From assembly GCA_903851045.1 (NCBI GenBank), contig CAINNF010000008.1, positions 299 through 64,298 of the forward strand: 64,000 nt of DNA, written 5' to 3'. This document shows positions 28,234-58,650 of the stretch, piece after piece. The first letter of the stretch is position 1; each line of letters begins with the position of its first letter. Below the pieces are notes generated by a model. That model was not told where the DNA came from. It did no database searches and worked only from the letters and a program-made list of their open reading frames with translations. Position numbers and translations under genes: made by a program. The stretch is from Candidatus Adlerbacteria bacterium. GTDB taxonomy: Bacteria; Patescibacteriota; Minisyncoccia; Phycocordibacterales; SBAW01.

Positions 28234-28240
28234 ACCGATA

Positions 28241-29308: not shown

Positions 29309-29310
29309 AC

Positions 29311-36648: not shown

Positions 36649-36904
36649 TGTTACCGCGGGCGTTGTGTTGTGGTCTTGTCTGTGGGGGCGTCTTCGATCT
36701 GTCGGGGGTGCTCTTTTTCTGGGGGCACGGTCATGAGTACGGTGCTTGGGATCGGCGAGGGTTCGATCGTTATCGTGTGATTTGGTGAGAGGTGCAACTC
36801 TTCGAACGAGAGTTTCGTCGCGAGCGGGGTCTTGCCGAACAGGCGCAGGATAGCGTTGGCGATGTCTATCTTGGTTGGGTAGTACGTCTCGGTCAGGGCG
36901 GTCG
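36649..36904. repeat. Direct repeat copy 1 (about 256 bp, about 97% identical to 46250-46506): displaced 3' end of the E1-beta gene
   Basis: Direct alignment of the two stretches, from gttaccg(c/t)gggcgttgtgttgtggtcttgtctgtgggggcg to ctcggtcagggcggtcg, shows only a handful of substitutions. Confidence 0.85.
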
Positions 36905-36968
36905 GAAATGGGAAATGGGGAGGCGTCCGTTTAATCACGATTTCTTGTGGTCTAATGTTAATCTCCAT
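36651..36968 (-). pseudogene. Truncated 3' fragment of the PDH-E1-beta-like gene. It encodes the last about 85 aa, identical to the C-terminus of 46253..47407, with a new junction-derived N-terminus
   Basis: The translation ...TALTETYYPTKIDIANAILRLFGKTPLATKLSFEELHLSPNHTITIEPSPIPSTVLMTVPPEKEHPRQIEDAPTDKTTTQRPR is identical to the tail of the 384-aa E1-beta ORF. Confidence 0.6.
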
Positions 36969-37050
36969 CCGCTATGCGAATACTGTGCAGCATAGCGGGA
37001 ACCAATTACTACACCACACAATTTTCAAATTAAACGGACGCCTCCCCATT
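36914..37050. repeat. Perfect 22-bp inverted repeat (aatggggaggcgtccgtttaat ... attaaacggacgcctccccatt) flanking an about 93-bp spacer with an internal 9-bp-stem hairpin (ccgctatgc/gcatagcgg). It sits exactly at the left island junction
   Basis: Read directly from the sequence. Also preceded by a tandem ggaaatg ggaaatg. Confidence 0.6.
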
Positions 37051-37103
37051 ATCCGCTTCCTGATTGAAGCTAATATAAAAATAATTTTTAACACTTGATA
37101 TGT

Positions 37104-37574
37104 TTATTGGTTAGAAACTAGATGCTCTGCTTTCTGATCAAGAGTAATTCTAGGATTTAATTGTGTAAGTTCTTTAAGAATTTTAGAGGTTGCTTTATTT
37201 CCATACGCTTCCAAAGTCCCAATTATACTTTCGCGTACCACACCTCTCTCATCAATATAACTAACCCTAATATCTGTGAGCATTCCAACAAATGATTTAC
37301 GAAATTTAACAGATTGAATTTTTGAAGTTTCAATAGTCTTGCTAGAAATCCATTTAATCGCTCTTAATTTGTGATCAAAAATTGTAATACGGGCAAAAGA
37401 TGACAGAACTGGAATAATTAGACAGAGAATAAGCGCAAAGGACATTCCTTTTACCATACTCTCCACCGTAGCTGTCCCGGAAGTTATTCCAAGGAGAAAA
37501 AAGGCAAGAAAGAATACTCCAAATATCGTCCAAATGCCCCTTATTAAACTTGGTTGCGGTTTGTAGGTGTTCAT
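37104..37574 (-). CDS. Small 2-TM membrane protein, candidate immunity protein for the Rhs C-terminal toxin
   Basis: 156 aa. Two N-terminal hydrophobic helices (IWTIFGVFFLAFFLLGI, MSFALILCLIIPVLSSF), then an about 90-aa soluble domain. The start codon is 2 nt downstream of the Rhs stop, and the AT-rich codon usage matches the island. Confidence 0.5.
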   Translation of the reverse strand: MNTYKPQPSLIRGIWTIFGVFFLAFFLLGITSGTATVESMVKGMSFALILCLIIPVLSSFARITIFDHKLRAIKWISSKTIETSKIQSVKFRKSFVGMLTDIRVSYIDERGVVRESIIGTLEAYGNKATSKILKELTQLNPRITLDQKAEHLVSNQ

Positions 37575-37576
37575 GA

Positions 37577-40500
37577 TTATTGTTTCTTAGTTATTATACT
37601 TGGAGTTGAGTTTGCAACACCAAATGGATTGGTCGAAGGTGTAGATGAGAACGATCCGAATGATGTACTTGATTTAGAACTATTTGAAGCAGCCACGGCA
37701 GCAACAAAACCAGTTGCTACCATTTGTGTGCCTACTCCTACAAATTCTTGTGCTCCATTCATGGTAGTGTGTGATCCTGTATAGAACGCAGTGGAGCCAA
37801 AACTTGGAAGCCTTCCTGGGGTACCCGGAACAGTACCCTTTAATACTCCTCCTGTCACTCCAGTCACTACAGATTGATAAGCAAGGGTCCCGTAGTTAGT
37901 CTGCTTATTTGTAATGTAGTTTACTCCAGCAGTGGTAACAAAGTTAGCTGCTCCTGCTGTGACACCAACAGCAACAGCTCCGGCTCCCAATATACCTGCG
38001 GTCGCAGAACTTGCACCAACCACGGCACCCGTCACAGCACTACGTGCATAATCTTGAGGCGAAGAAAGGTTTGAGTAAAAATCACTTGGCCTTAACCCAT
38101 TTTGGTTGATATTGCCTAATACATCGGAACCATATTGGCTAACGCCTCCAGCAACAAATCCTACTCCAGCTGCGATACATATAACTACAGCAGGACCTGC
38201 ACATCTCCCGTTTGGATCTGATTTATTTATTGGATTGTCATTTGCATAGGAATATGAGTTAAGACTTTGAGGATCAGAAAGATTTTGCTGAGTCTCCCAG
38301 AATACCGGGTCTTCGCTAATAAACTGACCGCGAGTTGGCGATTGATATCGGGCCTGCATGTAGTTTAAACCGCTACCCGCGTCATACTCAGTGCCAGCAT
38401 ACTTGCGCTTCTCCCCTTGGTAGGCGCCTGCCTTCGTGTCGAGTCTGGTTTGTCCATACGGATAGTAATCAAGCGTCTCGATGACATTACCCGCACTGTC
38501 AGTAATGATGTTGGAGCCAGTGAGATTGTCGGTCGCGATGTAGCGGACGGTGGTGGTTGCGGTGGTGGTGCCGCCGGTGGTTGATGTAGTAACTAGTGGC
38601 TTGAACGTCGCCATGACTGCGGCCCAGGGTCCGCTGGTTGTGGTGGTGAGTTTGGCTGCTGTTGTTGAAGCGGTGGTTATGGTCGTGTCCTCGGTCGCGA
38701 GTCGCTCGTGGGTGTCGTTGTCGTCTTGGTGTTGGCGCACGGTGTAGCTGGGGGCGGGTGTCCAGGTGTCCCCCGTAGTGGCGCTCCATGCGGCTCCTAC
38801 GTAGAGTTCACTGCCGAGTGTGGTGGTGACATTGCCGGGGTTCGGGTAGCCCGTTGCTCCCGTACTGGACGCTATTTTGTCCAGTGGTGAGGATGTCGCA
38901 ACGCCTGAGTACTCTTGGACTGCAATGGATGCGGCAGTAGCGGAGGTCACGGTGAAGGAGGAGCCTCCCGTGACGTTCTTCGCGTAGTAGAGGGCGACGT
39001 GGTCACCACCGTTGGTGGTGTTCACTGCTTCGTTGATCTTGGTATAGGTGTTGCCCTTGGAGTCGGTGATGTCGTTTGCGGGGAAGGTGGTGCCGAAGAC
39101 TGATACCGCAACAACGACGAGGTCGCCTTGGGTGACAGGGTTGGGGAAAGTGACGGAACCTATGGTGCTATCGATATTCCCTTGGACGAACGTGGGGGTG
39201 GAGGTAGCTGTGGTCGTGCCTCCCCCGCTACTGGTGGCGCTGGTATTCTCAATCGTTGCCAGGTCGAGATCGTTCGCGTAGATGTGCTTGGTGGTGGTGC
39301 CTACTCCCCCGAGTTGGACGTTGTAGAGCGTGTTAGGGGTGATGGTCGTGATGGTGCCTTCGGTGAACTTGATGCGATTGCCTTGGTAGTCGTAGGCGTA
39401 GGTGGAGGTGGCCAGGCCGTTGCCTGACTGGATGAGGCGGTTGTTGTAGTCCCAGGCGTAAGTGTTGGTGCCGTCGCTCAGGAGGTTGCCATTTTGGTCG
39501 TAGGTGAGCGTGGTGGTGGCGGTCGTGGTCGCAGTGCCTCCAGCGGCGGTTGTTGTGGCCGCCCGAAGTGCTACCAGGAGCATCGACCAGTCTTGGCTGG
39601 TTGCGCCAGTGTAAGTGTCGGAGTAAGTGCTGGTGGTGGTTGCTACCTGGTAGCTGGCGGCACCGAATATCGAGCCAGTGAGGTCTTTGTAGAGCGAAGT
39701 GCGACTGGTCGTCGCGTCGACCGTCGAGTAACGTGAAAGCGTGGCGGTCACGAGGTCTCCACCGGTAACATTGGAGAGACTGATGGTCGGGTTGCCGCTA
39801 AGGCCGGTCGCAGATGCGACCTTTTCGATCGGTGATACGGTGGCCACACCGCTGAAGGATGCGACCGCGAGCTTAAAGCCGTCGGTAGCACCCGTTACCG
39901 TCACCGACACCGTCTTAGAGCCAGTCGTTGTGGCGACAAGATACCACACCTCCGACGCTATGCCGACCATGCGAGTAGAGGTCGCTTTGGTGAACGACGC
40001 GCCGTTCCATGTGGCAGAGGTGATGGTGCCAGTGCCTCCGACATCCTGCCAGATGTCTGCATACAGGACGAGCATACTACTACTGGTCGCCACAGTCTGT
40101 GTCCACGTCTTGGTGACCGGGCCAGCGTTGTAGCCAGCGTTCGTACTGGTCGACGTAGCACCCCACACAACAGTCGAGGTCGAGACACCACCCGCCATGG
40201 TCGAGGTCGAGAAGGTCGTGAGCGCAGTCACCGCATCTGGATTCGCATAGTTGGAGCCTGTGTTGCCCGTGTAGAGATAACTACCCAAAGGGCCGCTGGT
40301 GATATTGCCCAGCGAGTCATAAGTGTAGGTTTGGTTGAAGGCTCCATTTCCAACAATAGCAGTCGATGCAGATAGAAGACGATTAAGACCATCGTAGGTA
40401 TACACAACCATTTGACCGTTCGCCAGGTCAGAGTTGTCGGTACGAGAAATGATATTACCATTTGGATCATAGACGTAATGTAGATCCTGCGTCTTTGTAT

Positions 40501-43500
40501 AATGGGTACTCGTCGCGAACGTGTTCGTTACCGTGAATGTACCGCCCATGGTATACGTGCAGATAGTATCAACACCGGAGGTGGAGGCTGTCCCGCCACA
40601 AGTATAGTCAGCGGCGTTCGCCGTAGGATATCGAATGATGACGATGCCAGACCCGCCCACGCCGCCAGGCCCATTATTCGGACTTCCGCCACCTCCGCCA
40701 CTACCGGTATTCGGAGTCCCCGCACCTCCACTGTAACTTCCACTTCCGTTGCCACCGCCTCCCACACCGCCTGTGCCTCCCACGAGCCCTCCGCCGCCTC
40801 CACCACCTCCCGCATAATATGTTGCTATACCTGTAATACTACTCTGTATACCAGTACCACCATTTGCACCATATCCACTCACGGTTGCATTATTGCCGCT
40901 TGAGCCTGCCCCTCCGCCACCGCCCGAGGCATTACCAACCCCGGTACTTGCACCACCGGAATTCCCTTCCCCATTGACAGAACTTCCTCCTACTCCACCC
41001 GTTATATACCCTGTTCCAGCTCCGCCACCAGACCCTCCGCTTCCACCAGGAAGTGAGTGACCGTACCCGTCTGTTGCGCTGCCATATCCTCCGCCAGCCG
41101 CAGAGACCAGAATGCCGATAGAGCTCGTAGCTCCTTGCGAGCCATTACCAGAAACCGTCGCGGGTCCTCCGGCTCCGCCGCTTCCGACCGTCACCGTATA
41201 GGCTCCAGGCGGGATACTTATCGAAGAACTGCTTATGACCCCGCCAGCACCTCCACCTCCGCCACCATTACCGTTATTTGCACCTGAGCCACCGCCACCA
41301 CCTGCAACCACGAGAATTTGTACTGGGTTATTCTGTGCGATCGTTGTTGTTGCAGCCGCGTATGACAGCTTTGCTGTCAAGCGATACAACTGGGTAGGAT
41401 CGTACGTGTATGTTGTAGTAGCACCAGACCCAGTGATCACTTGTGTATATTGACCTGTCGGAATATATCCAGAGTACATCGCAAGTATTTTAGACGACCC
41501 GCCGTTCTCTTTTTCCCATACTGAATCAAGTAATCCTGCGCTATTAAAATTGTATTGCGCTTGAGCACTATCTGGATAGATTATAAGCGTCTGATTACCT
41601 TGGCGATCATATGAGTACTGTGTAACGAACGTTGTGCTCGTACCCACGACAGACTCGGACTCACCACTCTTGAGTCCAATCGGATTGTAGGTATATGCAA
41701 TTCTCGATGCGGTAGTGCTCGCAACACACAGTTGCCCGATACCGTTCATACACGAGTCGTAGGTATAGGTGACTTCTGTACCCGCTTGCCCTGTGTAGTC
41801 TTCAGTCAGTGAACGGTTGAGCGCATCGTAGGTGAAGTTTACCGTCTGGCTTTTCGGGTCCACTCGTTGTATGAGATTGCCGGCGGTGTCGTAGGAGTAC
41901 GACCAACTCCCAAATGTCCCATCACCCACCATATGAAGGTCTTCGGCCGTGAGTCTTCGATTGAGGCCGTCATATGTGAAATTGCGTACGTTCCCATTAG
42001 CGTCCGTGACCTTGGTAAGGTTGTTGTTAAGATCATAGATATACGTGATGGTTGCAGACGACGTGGCAGTACTATGTTCGACCACGGTGACTAAGTTACT
42101 GAACGCGTCGTTCGACAAATCTTTTACATTCCCGTTCGCATCAGTTATCACGGTGTGCCACGGCAGGTACGCATAGCCAGTCGTGCCGACCGCATTGACC
42201 GCAGTACTTACTCTCTGGAGCGAGTCATATGTATAGGTGGTGAGGAGCGAACTACTTGCCGTCGGCGACGTGTACGCGGTACTTGAGGCGAAATATGGCA
42301 ACGACTCTTTCGACAGGAGCGAGGCGGTGTTGTACACCGTATCCTTGACCACGTAGGTATTGTTCCCTGGCGCTTGAGTCCTCGTCTGTATCGTGCGCCC
42401 AAGCCCATCAAAATATTCATACGCCGTGGTACTACTTGCCGAAGACAAACGGTTCGTGGTGAGCGTGTATGACGGGAATGTGTTGTCCGTGTACGCGATG
42501 TCGGTCTTCACTACCAATGTGCTTGATGAAGTTTGGTCTGGCTGTTTGACCTGCACCAGACGCCCCACGGGATCATACACGTTCACATTCGTGAGGCCAT
42601 TTGGGTCTGTCGTTGTTGCGACCTTCCCGCTCGCGTAGTCGTAGTACACCTGCGAAGTCTGATTGAGTGCGTTCGTTGTCGACGCTGGGTAGTAGTTGAG
42701 AGCATCATACACATACTTCGTCAGATTACCGAGCGCATCAGTCGTCGTACCCACGAGCCCAAAGCTGTTGTACGCTCTGGTGGTACTCGCGTACGAGCTA
42801 CCCGATATCCAATTCTTTTCTTGGGTACGATTACCCGCACCTACTGATCCAAAAGAGAGGTTGTCGTAGAGATACTGCGTTTCCATTATTTTTGTACTAC
42901 CCACGTCCGTAAGAGTTATATCGTCGATCACATCCAGCGTTGTGCTGGCATTCGTCGCATACGTTATGTTTTTGATTACTGTATCACTCCCTACGTCCGA
43001 ATAGGTACCGTCCGAACTTCCCGACACCTCTCCCCGGTCGATCGACTGTGTCAAATCGCCCGTCGTGGTGGAATACGTATACTCGACCGCATGATCTTTG
43101 TGAGAGGAGCCCGAGCTATCAAATTCCTGGGTCATGTGTTTCGATAGGTACACGAATGAGCGACCGTTCCCTTCGTCAGTTGTATCCCATCGACTGAAAA
43201 TACGCTTCAGAAGAGTTCCGTCTGTCTTCTTGGTGTCTTGGCGAAAAACGTGCCCAATCTGTGGGTACCCGTCAGCCTGTTCACCGTCGCCAGCGGAAAC
43301 ACTATCACCCTGGTCATAATACGTGGTCAAGAGATAGTCTGGATGTGTTTCGGTGATTGTGTAAAAACCAGCAAATTTACGGTCCTGCGGAGCAGCGACA
43401 TTGAGATACAGCTTACCGCCACTGTAAGCATAATCCGTTTCTGTACTGTTTCCATCATTATCGTTGGTAACGATTTTCGACACCAACAGAAGTGACATGG

Positions 43501-44524
43501 GCATGTGCGAATTCGTGCCTGTTTGTGGTGATGGGACATATGACACCTGCGTATTGCCACCCTTGGGATAGGTAATTTGAGTAAGAACGTCTTGGCGGGT
43601 GGTATTGTTCCTTATATTTTCATTATCTGGTATCCCATCACCATCCCAATCGACATACTCGTTATTTCTTTCTGTGTCATATTGATCGTATATAGTCGCA
43701 TACGTGGGAAGCGCTATGGTACTTGTAGCCCAGCCTGAACCGGTATTTAACAAGACCAAATTAAATCCATTTGAAATTTCGGCATTTCCGTGTGTGTTTC
43801 CAGCAATGGGGCTATAGTATGAGCGAACAAAATCCGGCAATCCATCACCGTTAACATCCATAAACCGCATGCCTCGATCAAAAAACTGATGACTCCCTGT
43901 GTTGTAGTAATAGGTTGACGTTGCAAGATTCCAAACTGAAGAGCAGGTGCCTCCTCTTCCGACCCACCCTGTACCATTATTCAGACAAAAATAGGTATTG
44001 TTATTGTCCGAATACACCCAATCATCTAGACCGTCACTATTTACATCTATGAGTTGAGAGTTAGAAATAGGTCCATTAATGTCAGGCATGGGCATAACTG
44101 TCGGGAACAGGTCACTTGTTCTCCAACCACTTCCATTCCCTAAATAGGTACCGTCATAACCCTCTTCGTAAATATTTGATGCGTAGTCTACATATCCATC
44201 TCCATTGAAGTTTCCTAGGAGGCCAGCAGTAAGTGTGGCATATGCTCCTGGAAAATATACCGCCACAGGAGGTATGTTCAAGGTCGAAGTCGCAACGGAA
44301 GTGAACGTATACGCACCTGTTGTGCTTCCTGTGCTGTAATATAAAGTGGCACCATCGTGATTAACGTAACTATGCAAAACGTCGGCATATCCATCCCCAT
44401 TAACATCTATAAATCTTGTACCACTTTCATAAGCAGTTGTAGGATTACCAAAACATGCCAGGAATATGATGGGGGTGGAGTAACGCCGACACCATCTATA
44501 CCAAACGCAGGAGACCCGCCGCAC
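37577..44524 (-). CDS. Rhs/YD-repeat polymorphic toxin (TcB/TcC- or WapA-like), C-terminal portion of a gene split by a frameshift. FG-GAP/VCBS-like repeats, glycine-rich insert, YD repeats, Rhs core, glycine-zipper C-terminal toxin domain
   Basis: 2315 aa. Motifs FIDVNGDGYADVL, IDVNSDGLDDWVY, FMDVNGDGLPDFVR. Dozens of YD repeats (YTYDALNRSLTE, YVYDPNGNIISRTD, YAYDYQGNRI...). Rhs core YYPYGQTRLD...RYQSPTRGQFISEDP...DPNGR. About 208-aa hydrophobic Gly/Ala-rich C-terminus. Confidence 0.9.
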   Translation of the reverse strand: MRRVSCVWYRWCRRYSTPIIFLACFGNPTTAYESGTRFIDVNGDGYADVLHSYVNHDGATLYYSTGSTTGAYTFTSVATSTLNIPPVAVYFPGAYATLTAGLLGNFNGDGYVDYASNIYEEGYDGTYLGNGSGWRTSDLFPTVMPMPDINGPISNSQLIDVNSDGLDDWVYSDNNNTYFCLNNGTGWVGRGGTCSSVWNLATSTYYYNTGSHQFFDRGMRFMDVNGDGLPDFVRSYYSPIAGNTHGNAEISNGFNLVLLNTGSGWATSTIALPTYATIYDQYDTERNNEYVDWDGDGIPDNENIRNNTTRQDVLTQITYPKGGNTQVSYVPSPQTGTNSHMPMSLLLVSKIVTNDNDGNSTETDYAYSGGKLYLNVAAPQDRKFAGFYTITETHPDYLLTTYYDQGDSVSAGDGEQADGYPQIGHVFRQDTKKTDGTLLKRIFSRWDTTDEGNGRSFVYLSKHMTQEFDSSGSSHKDHAVEYTYSTTTGDLTQSIDRGEVSGSSDGTYSDVGSDTVIKNITYATNASTTLDVIDDITLTDVGSTKIMETQYLYDNLSFGSVGAGNRTQEKNWISGSSYASTTRAYNSFGLVGTTTDALGNLTKYVYDALNYYPASTTNALNQTSQVYYDYASGKVATTTDPNGLTNVNVYDPVGRLVQVKQPDQTSSSTLVVKTDIAYTDNTFPSYTLTTNRLSSASSTTAYEYFDGLGRTIQTRTQAPGNNTYVVKDTVYNTASLLSKESLPYFASSTAYTSPTASSSLLTTYTYDSLQRVSTAVNAVGTTGYAYLPWHTVITDANGNVKDLSNDAFSNLVTVVEHSTATSSATITYIYDLNNNLTKVTDANGNVRNFTYDGLNRRLTAEDLHMVGDGTFGSWSYSYDTAGNLIQRVDPKSQTVNFTYDALNRSLTEDYTGQAGTEVTYTYDSCMNGIGQLCVASTTASRIAYTYNPIGLKSGESESVVGTSTTFVTQYSYDRQGNQTLIIYPDSAQAQYNFNSAGLLDSVWEKENGGSSKILAMYSGYIPTGQYTQVITGSGATTTYTYDPTQLYRLTAKLSYAAATTTIAQNNPVQILVVAGGGGGSGANNGNGGGGGGAGGVISSSSISIPPGAYTVTVGSGGAGGPATVSGNGSQGATSSIGILVSAAGGGYGSATDGYGHSLPGGSGGSGGGAGTGYITGGVGGSSVNGEGNSGGASTGVGNASGGGGGAGSSGNNATVSGYGANGGTGIQSSITGIATYYAGGGGGGGGLVGGTGGVGGGGNGSGSYSGGAGTPNTGSGGGGGSPNNGPGGVGGSGIVIIRYPTANAADYTCGGTASTSGVDTICTYTMGGTFTVTNTFATSTHYTKTQDLHYVYDPNGNIISRTDNSDLANGQMVVYTYDGLNRLLSASTAIVGNGAFNQTYTYDSLGNITSGPLGSYLYTGNTGSNYANPDAVTALTTFSTSTMAGGVSTSTVVWGATSTSTNAGYNAGPVTKTWTQTVATSSSMLVLYADIWQDVGGTGTITSATWNGASFTKATSTRMVGIASEVWYLVATTTGSKTVSVTVTGATDGFKLAVASFSGVATVSPIEKVASATGLSGNPTISLSNVTGGDLVTATLSRYSTVDATTSRTSLYKDLTGSIFGAASYQVATTTSTYSDTYTGATSQDWSMLLVALRAATTTAAGGTATTTATTTLTYDQNGNLLSDGTNTYAWDYNNRLIQSGNGLATSTYAYDYQGNRIKFTEGTITTITPNTLYNVQLGGVGTTTKHIYANDLDLATIENTSATSSGGGTTTATSTPTFVQGNIDSTIGSVTFPNPVTQGDLVVVAVSVFGTTFPANDITDSKGNTYTKINEAVNTTNGGDHVALYYAKNVTGGSSFTVTSATAASIAVQEYSGVATSSPLDKIASSTGATGYPNPGNVTTTLGSELYVGAAWSATTGDTWTPAPSYTVRQHQDDNDTHERLATEDTTITTASTTAAKLTTTTSGPWAAVMATFKPLVTTSTTGGTTTATTTVRYIATDNLTGSNIITDSAGNVIETLDYYPYGQTRLDTKAGAYQGEKRKYAGTEYDAGSGLNYMQARYQSPTRGQFISEDPVFWETQQNLSDPQSLNSYSYANDNPINKSDPNGRCAGPAVVICIAAGVGFVAGGVSQYGSDVLGNINQNGLRPSDFYSNLSSPQDYARSAVTGAVVGASSATAGILGAGAVAVGVTAGAANFVTTAGVNYITNKQTNYGTLAYQSVVTGVTGGVLKGTVPGTPGRLPSFGSTAFYTGSHTTMNGAQEFVGVGTQMVATGFVAAVAASNSSKSSTSFGSFSSTPSTNPFGVANSTPSIITKKQ

Positions 44525-45900
44525 GAAACAGAACCTGATATGGCGGTATCGTTTATACCATCCCCATTAGCGTCAGCGGAGACATTTGCTTGGTCGGCAT
44601 GATGACCAAAACCATTCACATTTGACCACGTAACTGACGTACTTGCATACTGAAAAGTCATTGCTGGTAAAGTGAGTTGGGTACCGTCGATGTTTTGACC
44701 GGTTTCCTGCACGCTTGATAAAAGTGAGCGATGATTATTATTCCCTACCGAGTATGAGAGAGCATACTTTCGAACAACATGACCGTTCATCTGAGCATCG
44801 ATCTCAGACACGCGACTATCGGTTATCACTTGAAAACCGTATTTGTAGCTTGCATACGGAACACTACTAGAAGCAAGCGAAAAACTTACACTCATCACAC
44901 CATCTGTCGAACCATGTCCTGTATATAAAATTTGTGAGGGAAATATCTGATTATTCTCCTTGGTATAGCTATATTTTATGTAATTATCGTTTACGTCTCT
45001 TACTTCTTCGAGATACCAACGCGATATGGCGGTCGAACTGGCAACGTCAAATTGTCGTGACTGCGTGGTGGTGCCATACTCGTAGCGGGTGCCATTCTTG
45101 TCATATGCGGTCCACGTATTATTTGAACAGACATATTTAACAAAACTTCCATCATCCACTCGAGCGTAATACACGCCAGGTGTCGATGTTGAAGTTGAGC
45201 TTGCAAGTTCCCCATTTATAGACGAACTAAAATAGGTGTCCGTAAAGAGTTGGTCCGATCCAATTTTATTTATTCTTTCGATGTACGGGATCGAGAGAGA
45301 CCACCCATACCCCACGATACTGTTGTCGTCCAAGTTTTGACTATTGTAGTTCAGAGACAAACTTGGCTGCATACCATTACGCCCCGGTGGGATATCCAAA
45401 GGTACCCCTTGTGTTAGAGCACCTGAAGCTGTATCTACTTTGGGTGATATGGTTTGGTATGTAAAAAGTGATGGATTAGATACGGTGGGTTGCCCATTCG
45501 TTCCCAAGGTCATTGGACTTAAGCTACTTTTTGTGTTTGTCTTACCGTTCGAGTCTTCTGTTGCGGTCGAATCAGACAAAGAAGAATTTTGAACATCAGG
45601 AGTGAGTGCTGTATTCGTATCACTCGTTGTGTCTGAAGAATTAGAGTCAGATTGTGAGGCTATACCTTGCACCGCACCTCCTGTAAATGAGCCTCCCATA
45701 TCCGATGGAGGGGTTGCGTCTGCGGCAGGTGGTGTTGGGTCGGGTATGATCGATGCGTCGGCCGCAGGCGGACTTACCACATCATCCGCAAACACAGGAG
45801 CGAGTGGCGTTACAAAAAACGTAAGAACCAGCAAAAACGCGACAACCTTTCTAAAGATGTTACAGCTTGTCGACCCAACAGCGAATGTCAGTGAATACAT
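44407..45900 (-). CDS. N-terminal portion of the same Rhs toxin gene: signal peptide plus SpvB/TcdB N-terminal domain. Joined to 37577..44524 by a 1-nt frameshift at a G5/C5 run (44471-44475)
   Basis: 497 aa. Signal peptide MYSLTF...VLTFFVTPLAPVFADDVV. SpvB-domain hallmark LSLNYNSQNLDDNSIVGYGWSLSIPYIERI. The ORF overlaps the next one by 118 nt in another frame. The upstream frame becomes nonsense after the poly-C tract and the downstream frame is nonsense before it. Confidence 0.8.
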   Translation of the reverse strand: MYSLTFAVGSTSCNIFRKVVAFLLVLTFFVTPLAPVFADDVVSPPAADASIIPDPTPPAADATPPSDMGGSFTGGAVQGIASQSDSNSSDTTSDTNTALTPDVQNSSLSDSTATEDSNGKTNTKSSLSPMTLGTNGQPTVSNPSLFTYQTISPKVDTASGALTQGVPLDIPPGRNGMQPSLSLNYNSQNLDDNSIVGYGWSLSIPYIERINKIGSDQLFTDTYFSSSINGELASSTSTSTPGVYYARVDDGSFVKYVCSNNTWTAYDKNGTRYEYGTTTQSRQFDVASSTAISRWYLEEVRDVNDNYIKYSYTKENNQIFPSQILYTGHGSTDGVMSVSFSLASSSVPYASYKYGFQVITDSRVSEIDAQMNGHVVRKYALSYSVGNNNHRSLLSSVQETGQNIDGTQLTLPAMTFQYASTSVTWSNVNGFGHHADQANVSADANGDGINDTAISGSVSCGGSPAFGIDGVGVTPPPSYSWHVLVILQLLMKVVQDL

Positions 45901-46249
45901 AAAAATAAAAAATTAGTGTCGCACCTCTACGCAAATAAACTGGGCTAACTATAAAGCACAAAATATTTTTGCAAATAAAAATTAGACGTAGGAGAAAAAT
46001 ATGCTACTTGTAAAAAATCTTCTCTTCCCGAGAAACCTTTATAAATGAATTATCGCTTATCCGAGATACTTTTGGAAAGCTCAACGTGATCAAGGCTATT
46101 TTAAAAATACACAAAATGCGAATTGGAAAAATATTTTGTCAAACAAACCAAAAAGTTATCAACAGGTACATAATCCATCTCTCTTACAGTTAATGGAGAA
46201 GACTTGGCAAACTACCACCTGTACCAAAGGTACCCTTAGCGATCCATCC

Positions 46250-46506
46250 TTGTTACCGTGGGCGTTGTGTTGTGGTCTTGTCTGTGGGGGCGTCTTCGAT
46301 CTGTCGGGGGTGCTCTTTTTCTGGGGGCACGGTCATGAGTACGGTGCTTGGGATCGGCGAGGGTTCGATCGTTATCGTGTGGTTCGGCGAGAGGTGCAAC
46401 TCTTCGAACGAGAGTTTCGTCGCGAGCGGGGTCTTGCCGAACAGGCGCAGGATAGCGTTGGCGATGTCTATCTTGGTTGGGTAGTACGTCTCGGTCAGGG
46501 CGGTCG
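46250..46506. repeat. Direct repeat copy 2 (intact 3' end of the E1-beta gene), marking the right island boundary
   Basis: See copy 1 at 36649-36904. Confidence 0.85.
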
Positions 46507-47407
46507 AGGTGGGGCACGGGACGTCGGGGCACGACAGCGACACGGGGCGGGCCTTCAGTGTGATGTTGTGGTGCTGTGCCACGCGCGCGATGATCTCTGC
46601 GCCGACGCTGAACGCGCGGTGCGTCGTATCGACCGTGATGAGTCTGCCGGTCTTCTTCACCGACGCGAACACGGTCTCGTAGTCTATCGGGTTGATACTC
46701 ACGAGGTCGATGATCTCTACACCCGCGTGCGTGCCGATCAGCTCGCGCGCCTGGAGCGTCGCAACGAGTCCGTCGCCGTAGGTCACCACCGTGACCATGT
46801 CTCCCGTGACGACCACGCGTGCCTCATCGAGCGGCACCGTGTACGACTCCTCGGGCACCGCCTGTTTGGTCCCGTACAGCCAACGAGGTTCGAGCATGAC
46901 GACCGGGTTGTTGTCCGCGATAGCGGACGCGAGCAGACCTTTCGCCAGGTAGGGTGTCGACGGGATGACGACCTTCAGTCCTGGCACACTGCCAAAGAGC
47001 GCGTGGAGCGCCTGTGTGTGTTGCGGCCCATTCCCCCACTGCCGACCAAGGGCGATACGAAAGACGATCGGTACCGGGTTGCCGCCGCCGAACATGTAGT
47101 TCCACTTCGCCGCCTGGGTAAAGATAGGATCGTACGCGAGCATCGCGAACTCGACGCGGCCATGGTGCACGATCGGTCGCAGTCCGTTGATGGCGGCACC
47201 CACCGCCATGCCCGTGAACGCGTTCTCCGAGACCGGCACGTCGAGTATGCGGTCGGGATATTTTACCTTCAGCCCCGCGGTCGTCCCATCCGCGCCGTTG
47301 GGGTAGGAGACGCCAAGGCCGATGACGAAGACCGACTGGTCCTTCTCCATCGCCTGGTCGGTCGCCTCTTTCAGCGCTTCGGTGTATTTGATGATTCGCT
47401 CAGGCAT
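46253..47407 (-). CDS. 2-oxoacid (pyruvate/acetoin) dehydrogenase E1 component beta subunit (transketolase-like) with Pro/Thr-rich about 60-aa C-terminal tail
   Basis: 384 aa. Motifs VFVIGLGV...DVPVSENAFTGMAVGAAINGLRPIV...VVMLEPRWLYG. The tail SPNHTITIEPSPIPSTVLMTVPPEKEHPRQIEDAPTDKTTTQRPR is not part of a canonical E1 beta. Confidence 0.85.
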   Translation of the reverse strand: MPERIIKYTEALKEATDQAMEKDQSVFVIGLGVSYPNGADGTTAGLKVKYPDRILDVPVSENAFTGMAVGAAINGLRPIVHHGRVEFAMLAYDPIFTQAAKWNYMFGGGNPVPIVFRIALGRQWGNGPQHTQALHALFGSVPGLKVVIPSTPYLAKGLLASAIADNNPVVMLEPRWLYGTKQAVPEESYTVPLDEARVVVTGDMVTVVTYGDGLVATLQARELIGTHAGVEIIDLVSINPIDYETVFASVKKTGRLITVDTTHRAFSVGAEIIARVAQHHNITLKARPVSLSCPDVPCPTSTALTETYYPTKIDIANAILRLFGKTPLATKLSFEELHLSPNHTITIEPSPIPSTVLMTVPPEKEHPRQIEDAPTDKTTTQRPR

Positions 47408-49391
47408 AGACGTGTGTGGTTAGTTCTTGTTCGTTCGGGTATGCGGCTTTCTGTGCATCGTCGATAGCTGCGAGCACCTGGGCGCGCACGTCAGTGTCGA
47501 TCTGTGCGAGCGTCTCTTCGGTAACACCTTGGGTAAGGAGCGTCTGTCGCAAACGCTTGATACTATCGTTCTTCGATCGAACTTCGGGCGTATCCTCTTC
47601 GCGATACCCCTGTGCATCATCGAACAGCGGGGCGCTGTGCGCCATGTGTCGGTACGTCATGCACTCCAGGACCGCGGGGGTCTTGGTCTTTCGGATCGAC
47701 GCGACCAGCTCCTTCGCCTTCGCGAGCACGTCCTCGTAGTCGTTGCCGTCCGCTTTCTTGTACTGGACGCCGAACCCCGTCACGATGTGTTCGACATCAT
47801 ACTTGGGAGAGCGACGATCCTTGAGTTTGGAGTTGACCGAATAGAGATTGTTCTCGACCACCAGCAAGAGTGGGAGTTTGAACAGTGCGGACAGATTGAG
47901 CGTCTCGTACACGCCGCCCTCCTCCGACGCCCCGTCGCCGACGAACGCGACCGAGATCCCGCGCTGGTGGTTGTACGCTTGCGCGAACGCAGACCCTGCC
48001 GCGAGCGGGACGGCACTCCCGAGTATCGGCGTCGACCCGACGAAATTGACCGACTTGTCTATCATATGCATCGAGCCACCTTTGCCGTGTGCCACACCCC
48101 CTTCCTTGCCGATCATCTCGCGCACCATGGCGCGCAGGTCGCCGCCTTTGGCGAGATAATGTCCGTGCGAACGGTGGTTGCCCATCACCTTGTCCTGCGG
48201 CTGGAGCGCATCGCACACGCCGGTCGCGACCGCCTCTTGTCCCACATAAAAATGTACGAAGCTCATGATCTTGTGCTTGAGGTACAGCTGCGCGATCTCC
48301 TCTTCGGCGGCGCGCATGTAACTCATCTTGGTGTACGCGCGCAGGAGCGGCGATGGCTGCAGGTCGATGAGGATACGGCTCGCCTCGCCCTTGCGCACCA
48401 GGTCGATCGCCTCGTTGATCTTGTGGATCGGGACACGGTGCGTGATGAGATTGTCGATATTGAGCAACCCGCTTTGGTAGAGCTTGATGTAGCGCGGGAT
48501 CTCGATGCTCGGCGAGAATTGTCCGCCTTGCGTCGCCTTGATCATCTTGCCACTGCCGCCAAAGAAGTGGTTCGCGTTCTTCAGCTCCACCGTCTCGCCG
48601 GGCTTGGGTTGGCCGACCATGATGAAGCGTCCTGTGCCAGAGAGAAGTTGGAGCGTCTCTTCGATGCTGCGCGGACTCCCCGAGGTGTCGATGATGACAT
48701 CCACTTCTTTTATGCCGAACGCCTTATGGAGAGCCTCTTTGATCGACTCGTGCTTACCGTTTATATACAGGTCCGCGCCGAGCTGCTCGGCGACCGCCTT
48801 CTTACTATCATGGATATCGACGCTGATGATGGGGTACGCGCTCACCATCTTCGCCGCTTTGATGAGGTTGACCCCAAGCCCGCCTGCGCCGACGATCATG
48901 ATCCCTTCCCCCATCTTGAGATTCGCCTCCAAGTTCACGGTGCCAAGCGCGGTCGAGAGACTGCATCCCAAGAGCGCGCACAACTCCTCCGGTGTATCCT
49001 GCGGGACGGGCGTGATGCGGTTCTCCGACACGATGGAATATTCGCTGAACGTGGTGACCTTGCCGCTTTTGATGACTTTGCCGTTGAAGATGTAGGACGG
49101 AAAATCGGATTCGATACCATCCCCTTTGCGCCAATGCATGACGACCTTATCGCCCTTTTTTACCTTCGTCACGCCAGCACCGATATCCTCGACGATACCG
49201 CACCCTTCGTGACCCATGAGATGCGGGAGGAACGCCGCGTTGCCTTTGTGGCCACCGATCTCTTGGAGCTGCGAACCGCAGATGCCGCTCACCAACACCT
49301 TCACCAATACCTGACCGAACAAGAGCTCCGTCAGACCAACATCCGCGACCGTGAGCGGCGCATTGATAGCTTCGAGGACAGCGGCTTTCAT
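47400..49391 (-). CDS. Fusion protein: N-terminal Zn-dependent medium-chain alcohol dehydrogenase plus C-terminal TPP-dependent 2-oxoacid dehydrogenase E1 alpha subunit
   Basis: ADH half has MKAAVLEA...GICGSQL...HLMGHEGCGIVEDIG and GAGGLGV. E1-alpha half has YVGQEAVATGV...HRSHGHYLAKGGD...GSMHM...GDGASEEGGVYETLNLSAL...LLVVENNLYS. Continuous frame with no internal stop. Overlaps the E1-beta gene by 8 nt. The start is set at the internal MKAAVL. Confidence 0.8.
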   Translation of the reverse strand: MKAAVLEAINAPLTVADVGLTELLFGQVLVKVLVSGICGSQLQEIGGHKGNAAFLPHLMGHEGCGIVEDIGAGVTKVKKGDKVVMHWRKGDGIESDFPSYIFNGKVIKSGKVTTFSEYSIVSENRITPVPQDTPEELCALLGCSLSTALGTVNLEANLKMGEGIMIVGAGGLGVNLIKAAKMVSAYPIISVDIHDSKKAVAEQLGADLYINGKHESIKEALHKAFGIKEVDVIIDTSGSPRSIEETLQLLSGTGRFIMVGQPKPGETVELKNANHFFGGSGKMIKATQGGQFSPSIEIPRYIKLYQSGLLNIDNLITHRVPIHKINEAIDLVRKGEASRILIDLQPSPLLRAYTKMSYMRAAEEEIAQLYLKHKIMSFVHFYVGQEAVATGVCDALQPQDKVMGNHRSHGHYLAKGGDLRAMVREMIGKEGGVAHGKGGSMHMIDKSVNFVGSTPILGSAVPLAAGSAFAQAYNHQRGISVAFVGDGASEEGGVYETLNLSALFKLPLLLVVENNLYSVNSKLKDRRSPKYDVEHIVTGFGVQYKKADGNDYEDVLAKAKELVASIRKTKTPAVLECMTYRHMAHSAPLFDDAQGYREEDTPEVRSKNDSIKRLRQTLLTQGVTEETLAQIDTDVRAQVLAAIDDAQKAAYPNEQELTTHVYA

Positions 49392-49420
49392 TGGCTTGAA
49401 GTATAGTGTAAAACTAATCA

Positions 49421-50119
49421 ATGTCCAGCATCGTCGTGTACCACCCTGTCGGTCTAGGTGACCACCTCGCATGCAGCGGTATCGTGCGCACGTACGCCAC
49501 CACCCACGACCGGGTCGGGGTCTTTTGCCTAGAGCAGAACTACCCGTCGGTCTCCGCTCTCTACCGCGACCTACCGAACGTGACCGTGCTGCGCGTGCGG
49601 TCGCACCGGGACATACAGCGCTTCCGCTTGCGCAACGCGATGCATCTCACCCGCAATCATTACGACCGGGTACTCAACGTGCGGGTGCTCGACGAAGAGT
49701 CCGGTATCCAATACGAAAAGCAATTGTATCGATCCGCGAACGTACCGATCGAGAACCTATGGGACAAATTCTTGCTCCAACGAGACGCCGCGGCGGAGCG
49801 AGCACTGATGGAGAAGCTGCATGCACCCGGCGCATACCAGTTCATCCACGAAGACGCGCGCTTCCCGCTGACACCGACCAAATTGTCGAACCTCCCCGCA
49901 CTGCGACCGGACCTCGCGCTGACGAAGAACATCTTCGACTACTGCTCGGTCATCGAGTGCGCCCAGGAGATCAACGTCATGGACTCGTCGTTCATGTTCC
50001 TCGTCGATTGTCTCGACTACACTGCGCCGAACCAGAAGCGATTCATACACCGCTACGCTCGACCGAACATGCCGTGGAACCTGCCCCTCCTACGCAAGCA
50101 ATGGACCATACTCACCTAA
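49421..50119 (+). CDS. Hypothetical protein (possibly glycosyltransferase-related)
   Basis: 232-aa ORF with plausible codon usage. No confident family. Confidence 0.35.
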   Translation: MSSIVVYHPVGLGDHLACSGIVRTYATTHDRVGVFCLEQNYPSVSALYRDLPNVTVLRVRSHRDIQRFRLRNAMHLTRNHYDRVLNVRVLDEESGIQYEKQLYRSANVPIENLWDKFLLQRDAAAERALMEKLHAPGAYQFIHEDARFPLTPTKLSNLPALRPDLALTKNIFDYCSVIECAQEINVMDSSFMFLVDCLDYTAPNQKRFIHRYARPNMPWNLPLLRKQWTILT

Positions 50120-50124: not shown

Positions 50125-51015
50125 ATGCAAGAACTCGTTATAACAAAACCGGGATGCAAAGAGTTCGCGCACGAGCTTGAAAATTATCTGCACCTCTGCG
50201 CCTATGGGATAGAGACGGGTGTGGTGGTACGCAACCCATCCTTCTTCGCACACCACCGTTTTTTTACATTGGTCGCGCGCGAGTCCCGGATGACGAGACT
50301 CTTTTCGCGTCTCGCGACATGCACACGCGCGATACCACTCCTGCGCGTCGCGCACGCTCTGTACGCTCGCTATATCTTTCGCTCATGCGCGACGTGCTGT
50401 GTCACCGCTTGGCGCGCGCCAACCTTCTTGCCACTCTCCGAAACCCTGCTGAAAAAAGTTGCCACAGGTGAGCAGGTGTATAGCTACGGATGGTTGTTTC
50501 GCCACACGAAGGGGCTCGCTCCGTATCGCAGCCAACTGCTCGAAGCGTTCAAGCCGGCACGACAGGTGCAAGACACGATCGACCAGGTCATCGCGCCTGT
50601 CGCGCGAACACACACGCTCATTGGTGTGCAGGTCAGACAGCGACCATATACCGGTTTTGCCGATGGTACATACCTCGTCCATCTCTCAAGGGTCCGTACG
50701 ATCATCGAAGAGTATCTCGACATGCGCCGTCTCGACAAAAAAGATGTCGCGCTCGTGATCGTGTCCGACGAAGGGGTACCCGCCGAACTGTTCGCCGACT
50801 ACACGACGTTCGTGTCACCCGAACCCGAGCCGACCAACCTGTTCCTGCTCGCCCACTGCAGCGTCGTCATCGGCGAGAATGGTTCGTACGCTAACCTTGC
50901 CGCCTGGTTCGGCGATGTCCCCCACATCGTGACGAGCGAGTCGTCGATCGACTGGGACCACTACAAAGACAAGCGAAGGTACTTTGCGAACGACTACCTG
51001 ACACTGGTTCGTTGA
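50125..51015 (+). CDS. Putative GT11-like (alpha-1,2-fucosyltransferase-like) glycosyltransferase
   Basis: Starts at MQELVITKPG (ATG 50125). The N-terminal 218 aa of the 49471 track ORF is Arg/Pro-rich out-of-frame noise. C-terminal CSVVIGENGSYANLAAWFG resembles the GT11 motif xSNSTFSWWAA, and GVQVRQRPY resembles the HxRRGDY motif. Confidence 0.35.
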   Translation: MQELVITKPGCKEFAHELENYLHLCAYGIETGVVVRNPSFFAHHRFFTLVARESRMTRLFSRLATCTRAIPLLRVAHALYARYIFRSCATCCVTAWRAPTFLPLSETLLKKVATGEQVYSYGWLFRHTKGLAPYRSQLLEAFKPARQVQDTIDQVIAPVARTHTLIGVQVRQRPYTGFADGTYLVHLSRVRTIIEEYLDMRRLDKKDVALVIVSDEGVPAELFADYTTFVSPEPEPTNLFLLAHCSVVIGENGSYANLAAWFGDVPHIVTSESSIDWDHYKDKRRYFANDYLTLVR

Positions 51016-52022
51016 ACGAACGAATTCTTGCAGGCATCGGCGACCGCGCGCATGTCGATCTTGTCGATGCAGTCGGGATAGTTCTTGGATACATGTGGCG
51101 TGCACAGGTCCTCGCGCGTGAACTGCTGCGCTGCACGAGCGCCATACTGCTCGGGAAACCACCAGTTGGGTCCGAGACAGGTGCGCATGACGACTAGGGG
51201 TCTGCCGATCTGCGCCGTGATGTGTGCGATGCCGGTATCGACACTCACTACGCCTATGCTCGAGTTGATCAGCTGCAGCATATCTTGCAGCGACGCACTA
51301 CCCGCCACCGTCACACTGTTCGACACACCATCGAGCATCGTCTGTGTCGTCGCCTGGTCGGCTGCGCCACCACTCAGCACGATCGTCGTCTCAGGAAAGC
51401 GCGCTCGCAGGTGTTCGATCAGCTCTCGAGCTTTCTGCGGGCTGATACTGCGCCCCGCGTTACCCGCGAAAAAGTGCGCGACGATGTAGCGACCAGACTG
51501 GAGAGAAAATCGTTCGAGCACCGCTGGCTGTGCGGTCACCCGTAGTTGCGGATATGGTACGAGCACCGATAATCCTGCGGCACGCAATGCTTCGCGCTCG
51601 TGTTCGGCGACCGCATGGTCAGGACGCACCGGCAGCAGGTGGTCATACAGAAAAGTGTTCCAACGTGAAGCGTCTTTGAAGCCGACGAGTCCACCGCGAC
51701 GAGCCAAGACACGCGCGGCGAGTTTGCTCGCCATGCCGAATCGCCCACCGTGTTTGCCTGCGTATTGCGTCACCACGAGTTCGCTCCCATGGAAGTGTCT
51801 CCAGAGTCTGAACAATCCACGGATGTCGCGACGGTTGGTCTCGATGACCTCGATGTAGGGAGCGTTCGCGAGCAGGTCGCGGATCATGCCGCCACGACTC
51901 GCTATCACGATACCGAGGCGCGCCTCGGGAAACTCGGCGTGTACATTGTCGAGCAGATACTTCGCCATCAAACAATCACCGATGGATGATGCGCGGAACG
52001 TCAGCGCTTTCGTGATCTTCAT
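50994..52022 (-). CDS. GT9 glycosyltransferase (ADP-heptose:acceptor heptosyltransferase family)
   Basis: 342 aa. Motifs ASSIGDCLMAKY...FAGNAGRSISPQKA...VDTGIAHITAQIGRPLVVM. Confidence 0.8.
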   Translation of the reverse strand: MKITKALTFRASSIGDCLMAKYLLDNVHAEFPEARLGIVIASRGGMIRDLLANAPYIEVIETNRRDIRGLFRLWRHFHGSELVVTQYAGKHGGRFGMASKLAARVLARRGGLVGFKDASRWNTFLYDHLLPVRPDHAVAEHEREALRAAGLSVLVPYPQLRVTAQPAVLERFSLQSGRYIVAHFFAGNAGRSISPQKARELIEHLRARFPETTIVLSGGAADQATTQTMLDGVSNSVTVAGSASLQDMLQLINSSIGVVSVDTGIAHITAQIGRPLVVMRTCLGPNWWFPEQYGARAAQQFTREDLCTPHVSKNYPDCIDKIDMRAVADACKNSFVQRTSVR

Positions 52023-58064: not shown

Positions 58065-58550
58065 ATGAGCGAACCGCGGTTAGCTCCGATCGTTGGGGCA
58101 CTACCGAGCGTCCGTGATGTCGGTTTGCGGCCACTGCCTCCCGATGACCCAGCCAGTCCGAAAGGGCGCAACACCTGGAACTGGCCCTTCCCGGCCAACC
58201 CCATACCGGGACAGACCATGATTGCTCGTCGCTTCACAGGCGATGCGGTGGGCGGTCACTTCCACGTACGCCGCACCCAAGACGCGCTGCACAACAAGGA
58301 TCCCGAATATCTGCTACTCATAACAGGCAGAGCCCATTTTTGGTTCCAAGATACGTCCGGCGAAGAGGTCGAGATGGTTTTGGACGCCACGATGGGGCCG
58401 CAGGAGGTGCGCATACCGCCGTACATCCTGCACATAGTGACGGTCTTGAGCGACATGATCATATTCATCGAACAACAACCGGCCGCATATGACCCGAAGA
58501 TGACCTATAACGCGGACGAGTTCGAACTACTTGTCGCGTCGCTCAAGTAA
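58065..58550 (+). CDS. Cupin-fold protein, possibly sugar ketoisomerase/epimerase (WxcM/FdtA-like)
   Basis: 161 aa. HFH motif (GGHFHVRR) in a beta-barrel-sized protein, just upstream of the C-methyltransferase and epimerase/dehydratase genes. Confidence 0.4.
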   Translation: MSEPRLAPIVGALPSVRDVGLRPLPPDDPASPKGRNTWNWPFPANPIPGQTMIARRFTGDAVGGHFHVRRTQDALHNKDPEYLLLITGRAHFWFQDTSGEEVEMVLDATMGPQEVRIPPYILHIVTVLSDMIIFIEQQPAAYDPKMTYNADEFELLVASLK

Positions 58551-58650
58551 CGGTAACGACAACAGTGTGCGAGGCGCGACCGATCGGTCGCGCCTCTTTT
58601 TATATGGCTTGTTCATTTGCACCCGTGGTCGTTTTCCTTATACTGGACCC

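Follow-up and report, generated by a model that had tools for sequence, protein, structure and literature searches.

Pairs of E1-alpha-like and E1-beta-like proteins that act without an E2 component, the alpha-KADH2 enzymes, are an accepted class of sugar C2-branching catalysts that put pyruvate-derived acetyl branches on keto sugars (PMC4753412, PMC4425429, PMC12247030). The evidence is genetic for AviB1/B2 in avilamycin and Pau11/Pau12 in paulomycin biosynthesis, and comes from feeding and knockout for the aldgamycin E1 pair; about 120 alpha-KADH2 clusters have been predicted, and the branch ketone is frequently reduced, for example by the aldo-keto reductase Pau7 (PMC4753412, PMC4425429, PMC12247030). 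The kibdelomycin pair KbDH-alpha/beta uses pyruvate and keto-sugar analogues in vitro (PMC12247030). Here we describe a candidate pair of this kind in a 64-kb stretch of DNA from Candidatus Adlerbacteria bacterium (contig CAINNF010000008.1, hereafter the window), a Paceibacterota-like member of the Candidate Phyla Radiation (CPR), in which a Zn-dependent alcohol dehydrogenase (ADH) is fused to a thiamine diphosphate (ThDP)-dependent E1-alpha and overlaps a gene for E1-beta. An earlier interpretation based on the letters of the window (the sequence-only reading) had likened the pair to AviB1/AviB2-type enzymes that attach two-carbon branches, and the literature confirms that this class exists (PMC4753412, PMC4425429, PMC12247030).

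Two further kinds of system are comparable. YerE/YerF and ErwE/ErwF pair a ThDP enzyme with a reductase in the lipopolysaccharide (LPS) sugars yersiniose and erwiniose (PMC9306805), and for miharamycin and amipurimycin it has been proposed that a split transketolase adds the hydroxyacetyl branch once an oxidoreductase has made the keto group (PMC12247030). In the legend of a review figure, alpha-KADH2 and transketolase branchers are assigned to secondary metabolites, and YerE-like enzymes to LPS. The searches we made for literature on pyruvate dehydrogenase (PDH) E1 in O-antigen clusters returned nothing relevant, and a paper on aldgamycin gave no detail on its E1. A possible parallel, E1 genes in the Coxiella O-antigen region, was dropped: the paper on phase variation there contained no transketolase, pyruvate dehydrogenase or thiamine terms.

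With moderate confidence, we propose that the ADH::E1-alpha fusion and E1-beta form an E2-independent, alpha-KADH2-type ThDP carboligase coupled to an NAD(H)-dependent Zn-ADH, which would act on a surface-glycan sugar of this bacterium. The proposal starts from what the genes themselves display, namely their architecture, intact cofactor motifs, missing E2 and E3 components and conserved synteny. As in alpha-KADH2 systems, separate E1-alpha-like and E1-beta-like domains lie inside a sugar-biosynthesis cluster free of E2/E3 and have an oxidoreductase partner; in the known pairs a dedicated one (Pau7) often reduces the branch ketone. The cited known cases, however, all come from secondary-metabolite clusters and have dTDP-deoxyhexose enzymes as partners, whereas the window pair lies in a CPR surface-glycan locus and is accompanied by ADP-heptose-type enzymes and transferases like those of glycosyltransferase (GT) family 9. 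Pau7, moreover, is a separate aldo-keto reductase, whereas the window oxidoreductase is an ADH of the Zn-dependent medium-chain dehydrogenase/reductase (MDR) type fused to E1-alpha. YerE/YerF and ErwE/ErwF, in which a ThDP carboligase and an adjacent NAD(P)H reductase act on a keto-sugar nucleotide for a cell-surface polysaccharide, resemble the window system as proposed, but YerE-type enzymes belong to the single-chain decarboxylase (acetolactate-synthase-like) superfamily and the window catalyst is a two-subunit E1, in which the single-chain TPP_enzyme_N/M/C fold amounts to a sub-threshold TPP_enzyme_C overlap of 17.5 bits. The split transketolases of miharamycin and amipurimycin are likewise two-gene ThDP enzymes of the transketolase/E1 fold preceded by an oxidoreductase, and a split transketolase stands where E1 would be in sister cassettes of the window ADH family. 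They differ in that the window enzyme is E1-type, its E1-alpha domain scoring 222 bits with E1_dh versus about 24 bits with transketolase models; the miharamycin role is itself unproven, and the known cases are in Streptomyces secondary-metabolite clusters.

The fusion is genuine and not an assembly or frameshift artefact. Its open reading frame (ORF; 47400..49472, minus strand) has a start at 49391 (MKAAVLE...) that is backed by homologues, which gives a gene at 47400-49391 encoding 663 aa. The Pfam domains ADH_N (aa 26-131), ADH_zinc_N (aa 171-279) and E1_dh (aa 355-653, E = 7e-66) follow one another in a single frame without a stop. An identical 663-aa protein is present on eight contigs (sources NCBI, Logan and ENA), and 17 more full-length fusion clusters, 61-84% identical to the window protein, bring the number to 18 clusters, from independent assemblies. 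The sequence-only reading had described this translational fusion, had proposed looking for it in relatives and had named a missed stop or frameshift between ADH and E1-alpha as what would overturn it; the frame proved open and the fusion recurrent. Its 8-nt overlap between the fusion gene and E1-beta is also as described, the two genes sharing 8 nt within ATGCCTGA, where the E1-beta ATG overlaps the fusion stop codon.

In unfused close relatives, the ADH terminates with '...ASRILIEM*' and E1-alpha begins 1-8 nt downstream with 'MxxxLLxAYKKM'. At the window junction ('...ASRILIDLQPSPLLRAYTKM') the ADH is joined end-to-end to E1-alpha and a linker is absent. Compared with the unfused relatives, loss of the ADH stop codon therefore created a linker-free fusion. 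A neighbour-joining tree built from the ADH domains places the fused forms in at least 3-4 clades, interleaved with unfused ones, so fusion or fission must have occurred repeatedly, which is a signature of two enzymes working together. ADH, E1-alpha and E1-beta are always contiguous, either fused or 1-8 nt apart. This contiguity and the recurrent fusion indicate that the three are tightly coupled in function.

Two further observations concern the layout of the genes. Just 29 AT-rich bases (49392-49420) separate the start codon of the fusion gene from that of a divergent GT9-like gene, so both promoters would need to overlap coding regions. The plus strand holds long antisense ORFs opposite the E1-beta and fusion genes, at 46136-47467 (443 aa) and 47427-49406 (659 aa), which are artefacts of base composition caused by the GC-rich coding strand.

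The ADH domain (aa 1-343 of the fusion; 48363..49391, minus strand) is a Zn-dependent medium-chain enzyme with Pfam ADH_N and ADH_zinc_N, and its best PDB matches are class I/III ADHs (E about 1e-37). Its catalytic Zn ligands are Cys38/His61(Glu62)/Cys143; Cys38, His61 and Cys143 are invariant across 17 family sequences and align to Cys46, His67 and Cys174 of HLADH. The four-Cys lobe that holds the structural Zn is missing, and aa 86-111 are Cys-free with a conserved HWRKGxGIE in its place. Hence the domain has two features of Zn-dependent MDRs, the catalytic ligands and the GxGxxG NAD fold, and lacks the third, the structural Zn site. A GAGGLG motif and the Asp of 'VDI' are retained, and the Asp favours NAD(H) over NADP(H). 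Since this Asp is of the NAD type, the ADH could form the acceptor carbonyl instead of reducing the product. The sequence-only reading had the ADH coupling reduction of the ketone; published pairings of ThDP enzymes with reductases speak for that part, and the NAD-type Asp would allow acceptor formation instead.

The E1-alpha domain (aa 344-663 plus stop codon; 47400..48362, minus strand; Pfam E1_dh, 7e-66) retains the GDG...NN ThDP motif and the active-site His ('MAHS'), and its N-terminus is minimal. It matches human PDH E1-alpha at 2e-48 and scores 306.9 bits with the NCBIfam model PDH_E1_alph_y (TIGR03182), under the equivalog cut-off of 393.85. The E1-beta gene (46253..47407, minus strand) encodes 384 aa, of which aa 1-323 (46439..47407) form the canonical fold with Pfam Transket_pyr and Transketolase_C. 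It retains the cofactor-activating Glu (PVSENAF) and the His (GPQHTQ), matches human PDH E1-beta at 2e-60 and reaches 267.4 bits with NCBIfam PRK09212, under the equivalog cut-off of 321. An identical 384-aa E1-beta is present on six contigs from independent samples. The pair thus has the intact ThDP-binding and cofactor-activating residues of paired alpha-KADH2 genes. The catalytic His residues were also tried as a discriminator of lipoyl dependence and proved uninformative, the one in E1-alpha and the one in E1-beta both being conserved.

The PDH and acetoin dehydrogenase E1s (PdhA/PdhB, AcoA/AcoB) share the fold, the ThDP motif, the activating Glu and the active-site His with the window pair, which raises a role in central or fermentative metabolism: the pair might be the E1 of an acetoin/2,3-butanediol or pyruvate dehydrogenase system whose E2/E3 are encoded elsewhere, or a pyruvate decarboxylase-like E1 that releases acetaldehyde for the ADH to turn into ethanol. 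PDH E1 models are its best curated matches, a JGI label on one homologue reads acetoin:DCPIP oxidoreductase alpha, and the His residues related to lipoyl are kept in both subunits; butanediol dehydrogenases, too, are MDR ADHs. However, the window pair differs from these E1s in falling under both equivalog cut-offs, in its minimal E1-alpha N-terminus, in an E1-beta extension of about 24 aa that is conserved and not found in complex-forming E1s, and in its glycan context. Across all plausible ORFs of the window scanned with Pfam and NCBIfam, none had a Biotin_lipoyl, 2-oxoacid_dh or Pyr_redox domain, and the gene tables of about 30 related loci held no E2 or E3 gene. Neither acoC (E2) nor acoL (E3) of an Aco operon was therefore seen in the window or the related loci; the sequence-only reading was right that these components are missing, and a cluster without E2/E3 partner is what characterises alpha-KADH2. 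The same glycan-gene setting recurs in CPR, Rheinheimera, Prochlorococcus and Chthoniobacteraceae, and the partner swap with transketolase is hard to square with acetaldehyde release. Because E2/E3 are missing, glycan synteny is conserved across phyla and transketolase can take the place of E1, we regard a catabolic or fermentative role as unlikely, and this set of explanations as very improbable overall.

E1-beta extends beyond the canonical fold in two parts. The first, aa 324-347 (46367..46438, minus strand; GKTPLATKLSFEELHLSPNHTITI), comprises 24 aa with the family motif LSFEELHLxP ('...KLSFEELHLSP...' in the window). It is present in all 18 E1-betas (18/18) that follow this ADH family and missing from PDB chains of PDH and branched-chain ketoacid dehydrogenase (BCKDH) E1-beta, whose alignments stop at about query aa 311-321. 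The second, aa 348-384 plus stop codon (46253..46366, minus strand), is a Pro/Thr-rich tail with 8 Pro and 6 Thr in 37 aa. Relatives at 59-75% identity do not have it and end right after the conserved extension. The non-canonical Pro/Thr-rich tail noted from the sequence thus stands as a lineage-specific feature for aa 348-384, but not for aa 324-347, which belong to the family.

The 3' end of the E1-beta gene also borders a lower-GC block of about 9.6 kb (36649-46506) that is bracketed by 256-bp direct repeats. The block carries an SpvB-domain gene (44407-45900), a gene for a Gly-rich Rhs/YD-repeat protein of 2315 aa (37577-44524) and a 156-aa ORF. At its far boundary the E1-beta 3' end recurs in a second, displaced copy (36649..36904, minus strand; 256 bp) that is 98.4% identical to 46251-46506 (blastn), and the repeat spans the Pro/Thr tail and stop codon. 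On another contig (L090), the same 384-aa E1-beta is followed directly by the 276-aa neighbour and the SpvB/Rhs block is absent, which makes the toxin-like cassette a polymorphic insertion. We rejected the idea that the tail derives from this insertion, since the flanking repeat already has the tail and the contig without the insertion has it as well.

We scanned one genome per species with an alignment of the ADH family, which returned at least 534 loci, and clustered the ORFs of 87 of them. Two cassette types emerged. In the E1 type, the ADH is 53-76% identical to that of the window and the gene order is GT9-like, ADH, E1-alpha, E1-beta, in most cases with an HldE-like kinase (16 of the 25 E1-type loci) and/or an adenylyltransferase (10 of 25) next; GT9 and GT9-like proteins, short-chain dehydrogenases/reductases (SDRs) and methyltransferases also belong to the synteny. 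Its hosts are mostly metagenome-assembled genomes (MAGs) of Paceibacterota and other CPR lineages, along with a Rheinheimera MAG and a Chthoniobacteraceae MAG. In the transketolase type, the ADH is 43-50% identical to that of the window, and genes for GmhA, SDR, split transketolase, HAD, APH-type kinase, methyltransferase and ADH come in that sequence, ahead of an HldE-like, a C-methyltransferase or a WbuC cupin gene. This type occurs in Legionellaceae, Prochlorococcus/Synechococcus, Methanoregula, Nitrospirota, Verrucomicrobiota, Acidobacteriota and others.

Any of three ThDP catalysts can be the direct partner of the ADH, namely E1-alpha/beta, a split transketolase and a single chain of about 400 aa. 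A split transketolase lies directly beside the ADH in L028 (ADH 62% identical to the window), L056 (Pelagibacteraceae) and L072. The single chain, with E1_dh and Transket_pyr, adjoins the ADH in L007 (3033-4250), L012 (11041-12243), L022, L032 (2630-3829) and L045 (8690-9961); in L032, a Prochlorococcus single-amplified genome, the catalyst is accordingly this variant and not E1-alpha/beta. The chain consists of a shortened E1_dh (PP) and a Transket_pyr domain, the transketolase C-terminal domain is missing, and it replaces E1-alpha/beta. To our knowledge, no ThDP enzyme of so minimal a build has been described. What stays constant across the loci is an ADH adjoining a C2-transferring ThDP enzyme, a glycan locus and heptose-type activation genes. 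Published systems (AviB1/B2, Pau11/12 with Pau7, KbDH and the miharamycin split transketolase) likewise combine an oxidoreductase with a ThDP enzyme for C2 branching. This leads us to suggest, tentatively, that the ADH and a C2-transferring ThDP enzyme constitute a widespread, uncharacterised route to C2-branched or -extended heptose-type surface sugars, in three interchangeable architectures of which the CPR fusion would be the most integrated.

Within the family, loci L034-L087 (e.g. L060:1904-13250), whose hosts are those of the transketolase type, form a highly conserved cassette of GmhA-like protein, 4,6-dehydratase-like SDR, split transketolase, SDR, HAD-like protein, APH-type kinase, methyltransferase, Zn-ADH, C-methyltransferase, WbuC cupin and an HldE-like protein of reversed order. 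Cultured carriers of a sister cassette include Pseudoduganella ginsengisoli KCTC 42409 (L039) and Oceanidesulfovibrio marinus (L006). Our searches found no literature match for the combination of transketolase, gmhA, hldE and C-methyltransferase. A cyclitol (C7N) product was considered and rejected, as the candidate gene encodes a radical-SAM/SPASM protein rather than a sugar-phosphate cyclase.

The activation genes that follow E1-beta bear on two other explanations. In one, the E1-alpha/beta pair would accept an aldose phosphate or an ADH-made aldehyde, as DXS or transketolase would, and the resulting C2-extended ketose or higher-carbon sugar would be activated by HldE-like enzymes and transferred by GT9, so that no tertiary-alcohol branch arises. 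HldE-like kinase or adenylyltransferase genes directly after E1-beta fit such a chain extension (L002, L091, L008, L013), with overlapping reading frames in L002 and L091, as does the order ADH, ThDP enzyme, kinase, HldD-like, adenylyltransferase in L007, although gene order does not fix the order of reactions. GmhA occurs in 4 of 25 E1-type loci versus 17 of 28 transketolase-type loci and is absent from the window by tblastn, and an NAD-type ADH suits oxidation to an aldehyde. Classical transketolases, which replace E1 in the sister cassettes, use aldehyde acceptors. However, a C2 unit derived from pyruvate would give a 1-deoxy-ketose, and such a sugar has no route by isomerisation to the aldose that anomeric activation needs; there is precedent for E1-alpha/beta pairs in C2 branching but none for this role. 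We hold such chain building at the sugar-phosphate level to be rather unlikely. Extension of the chain of a heptose-pathway intermediate, in general, is as live an alternative as branching.

In the other, the ThDP enzyme would make a ketose phosphate that the ADH reduces to an alditol phosphate in the manner of TarJ, and a cytidylyltransferase would turn it into a CDP-alditol head group for a teichoic-acid-like decoration. MDR Zn-ADHs such as TarJ do reduce ketose phosphates ahead of nucleotide activation, and CTP_transf_like genes come after E1-beta. These E1-type nucleotidyltransferases, however, score 164-175 bits with the heptose-1-phosphate adenylyltransferase model (rfaE_dom_II) versus 41-48 bits with that of glycerol-3-phosphate cytidylyltransferase, which weakens the idea; the adjoining genes encode GT9-like glycosyltransferases rather than phosphotransferases, and the PfkB kinase would be superfluous. 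We consider a CDP-alditol product improbable.

In the window, the genes around the fusion and E1-beta are those of a glycan locus. Divergent from the fusion gene lies a gene (49421..50119, plus strand) whose product has no Pfam or NCBIfam match. Its AlphaFold2 model (pLDDT 95, pTM 0.91) has WaaF (1psw), TibC (4rap), a GT9 protein (3tov) and WaaC as top Foldseek matches in the PDB, from which we take it to be a newly recognised compact GT9-like protein of heptosyltransferase fold. This cluster (c14) is found in 13 of 25 E1-type loci, mostly immediately upstream of the ADH. The next gene (50125..51015, plus strand; cluster c19, in 7 of 25 E1-type loci) encodes a putative GT11/GT23-like, fucosyltransferase-type protein. 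The window copy has no Pfam match; the matches of its homologues are weak, 2/10 to Glyco_transf_11 (best E = 1e-5) and 1/10 to NodZ (6.5e-4), and the motifs HxRQxPY and GxNSSFSxLAAWFG are conserved. A heptosyltransferase-like GT9 family glycosyltransferase follows at 50994..52022 (minus strand; Pfam Glyco_transf_9, 3.4e-10; NCBIfam heptosyltransferase II/I under cut-off), and GT9 genes occur in 9 of 25 E1-type loci. Beyond it, the window encodes several methyltransferases, GT1 and GT2 proteins, a PMT_2 protein and GtrA. At 9-13 kb from the ADH/E1 module are a sugar C-methyltransferase (58531-59832, plus strand; Pfam Methyltransf_13/14) and a 4,6-dehydratase-like SDR (59885-60973, plus strand; Pfam Epimerase/GDP_Man_Dehyd; NCBIfam dTDP-glucose 4,6-dehydratase, 109 bits, under cut-off), which probably mark a keto-sugar nucleotide intermediate in the locus. 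The Pfam neighbours are thus glycosyltransferases and methyltransferases, in agreement with the setting described by the sequence-only reading, and many relatives conserve this setting.

Genes for ADP-heptose-type activation are dispersed in the window as separate genes between 13276 and 16910: a GmhB-like phosphatase (13276-13839, plus strand; NCBIfam PRK08942, 155 bits, cut-off 178), an HldE-kinase-like PfkB protein (14423-15412, plus strand; rfaE_dom_I, 152 bits) and an HldE-adenylyltransferase-like protein (16266-16910, minus strand; rfaE_dom_II, 150 bits, cut-off 181.5). Over 13276-31090, such genes are interleaved with those for an ABC exporter, a B12-binding radical SAM enzyme (16885-18672), a DegT aminotransferase and a GFO_IDH_MocA oxidoreductase. 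The same stretch also encodes an APH-type kinase and a nonulosonic-acid set of CMP-transferase (27475-28269) and NeuB (29990-31090). Farther upstream, nitroreductase-like, 487-aa Pfam-less and ThiF-family proteins are encoded side by side at 3043-6657, adjoining a 7TM histidine kinase.

The presence of NeuB and a CMP-transferase, both in the window and in L001, allows another use of the pair, in which E1 would decarboxylate a nonulosonic or Kdo-type sugar alpha-keto acid supplied by the NeuB homologue and the ADH would reduce the resulting aldehyde. Ulosonic acids are formally 2-oxo acids, but PDH-type E1 pockets suit small ones, and the NeuB gene lies about 16 kb off and does not recur as a neighbour of the ADH/E1 module. 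For the latter reason we set the idea aside as highly unlikely.

For the E2-independent carboligase that we propose, we infer the donor, acceptor, step order and product as follows. ADH and E1 would perform two consecutive steps toward an unusual nucleotide-activated sugar. E1 would decarboxylate pyruvate to hydroxyethylidene-ThDP and transfer the resulting C2 unit onto the carbonyl carbon of a sugar intermediate, for which the ADP-heptose-type pathway encoded alongside is the likeliest source, to give an acetyl-carbinol branch or extension. The fused ADH might then turn the ketone so formed into a 1-hydroxyethyl group by reduction, on the model of YerE/YerF and of Pau11/12 with Pau7, or it might oxidise a hydroxyl to form the acceptor carbonyl, as proposed for the oxidoreductase preceding the miharamycin split transketolase. 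The adjacent GT9-like and GT11-like transferases may install the product. Because the operon partners are an HldE-like kinase/adenylyltransferase and GT9-like transferases, the evidence points to an ADP-heptose-type intermediate as the scaffold rather than a dTDP-deoxyhexose. The two-carbon sugar-tailoring role put forward by the sequence-only reading is therefore plausible and unproven: the E2-less pair, the glycan locus and the literature class favour it, while the partners are ADP-heptose-type and not the dTDP-deoxyhexose enzymes of the known cases.

Several observations weigh against this proposal. Both active-site His residues that lipoyl-dependent E1s use are kept in the window E1s, so the sequence leaves room for an E2 partner encoded elsewhere. 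The likeness to AviB, Pau and KbDH proteins is one of domain content and gene context. The kinase and adenylyltransferase of the window lie 30 kb from the ADH/E1 module, and the SDRs near E1 modules are heterogeneous (HldD-like, GMD, FnlA or generic 4,6-dehydratase-like) and not always present. Finally, L027 has a split transketolase and E1-alpha/beta together, and the strict equivalence of the two enzymes is therefore not proven. We class the window system as a CPR form of alpha-KADH2 sugar tailoring that is fused to an ADH, lies in a glycan locus and belongs to a large uncharacterised cassette family, an interpretation that is partly supported.

An E1 annotation in a CPR genome, then, need not imply pyruvate oxidation. 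The fusion would represent a naturally joined two-step biocatalyst, combining C-C bond formation with stereoselective redox chemistry, of possible interest for chiral alpha-hydroxy-ketone and diol chemistry, and the ADH together with its ThDP partners provides a concrete set of marker genes for mining such pathways. Relatives of the ADH/E1 module are found in abundant marine and freshwater lineages. If our interpretation holds, the route spans CPR, Prochlorococcus/Synechococcus, Pelagibacteraceae, Legionellaceae, Nitrospirota, Verrucomicrobiota, Acidobacteriota and methanogens, and unknown branched or higher-carbon sugars may sit on the surfaces of uncultured, ecologically dominant microbes.

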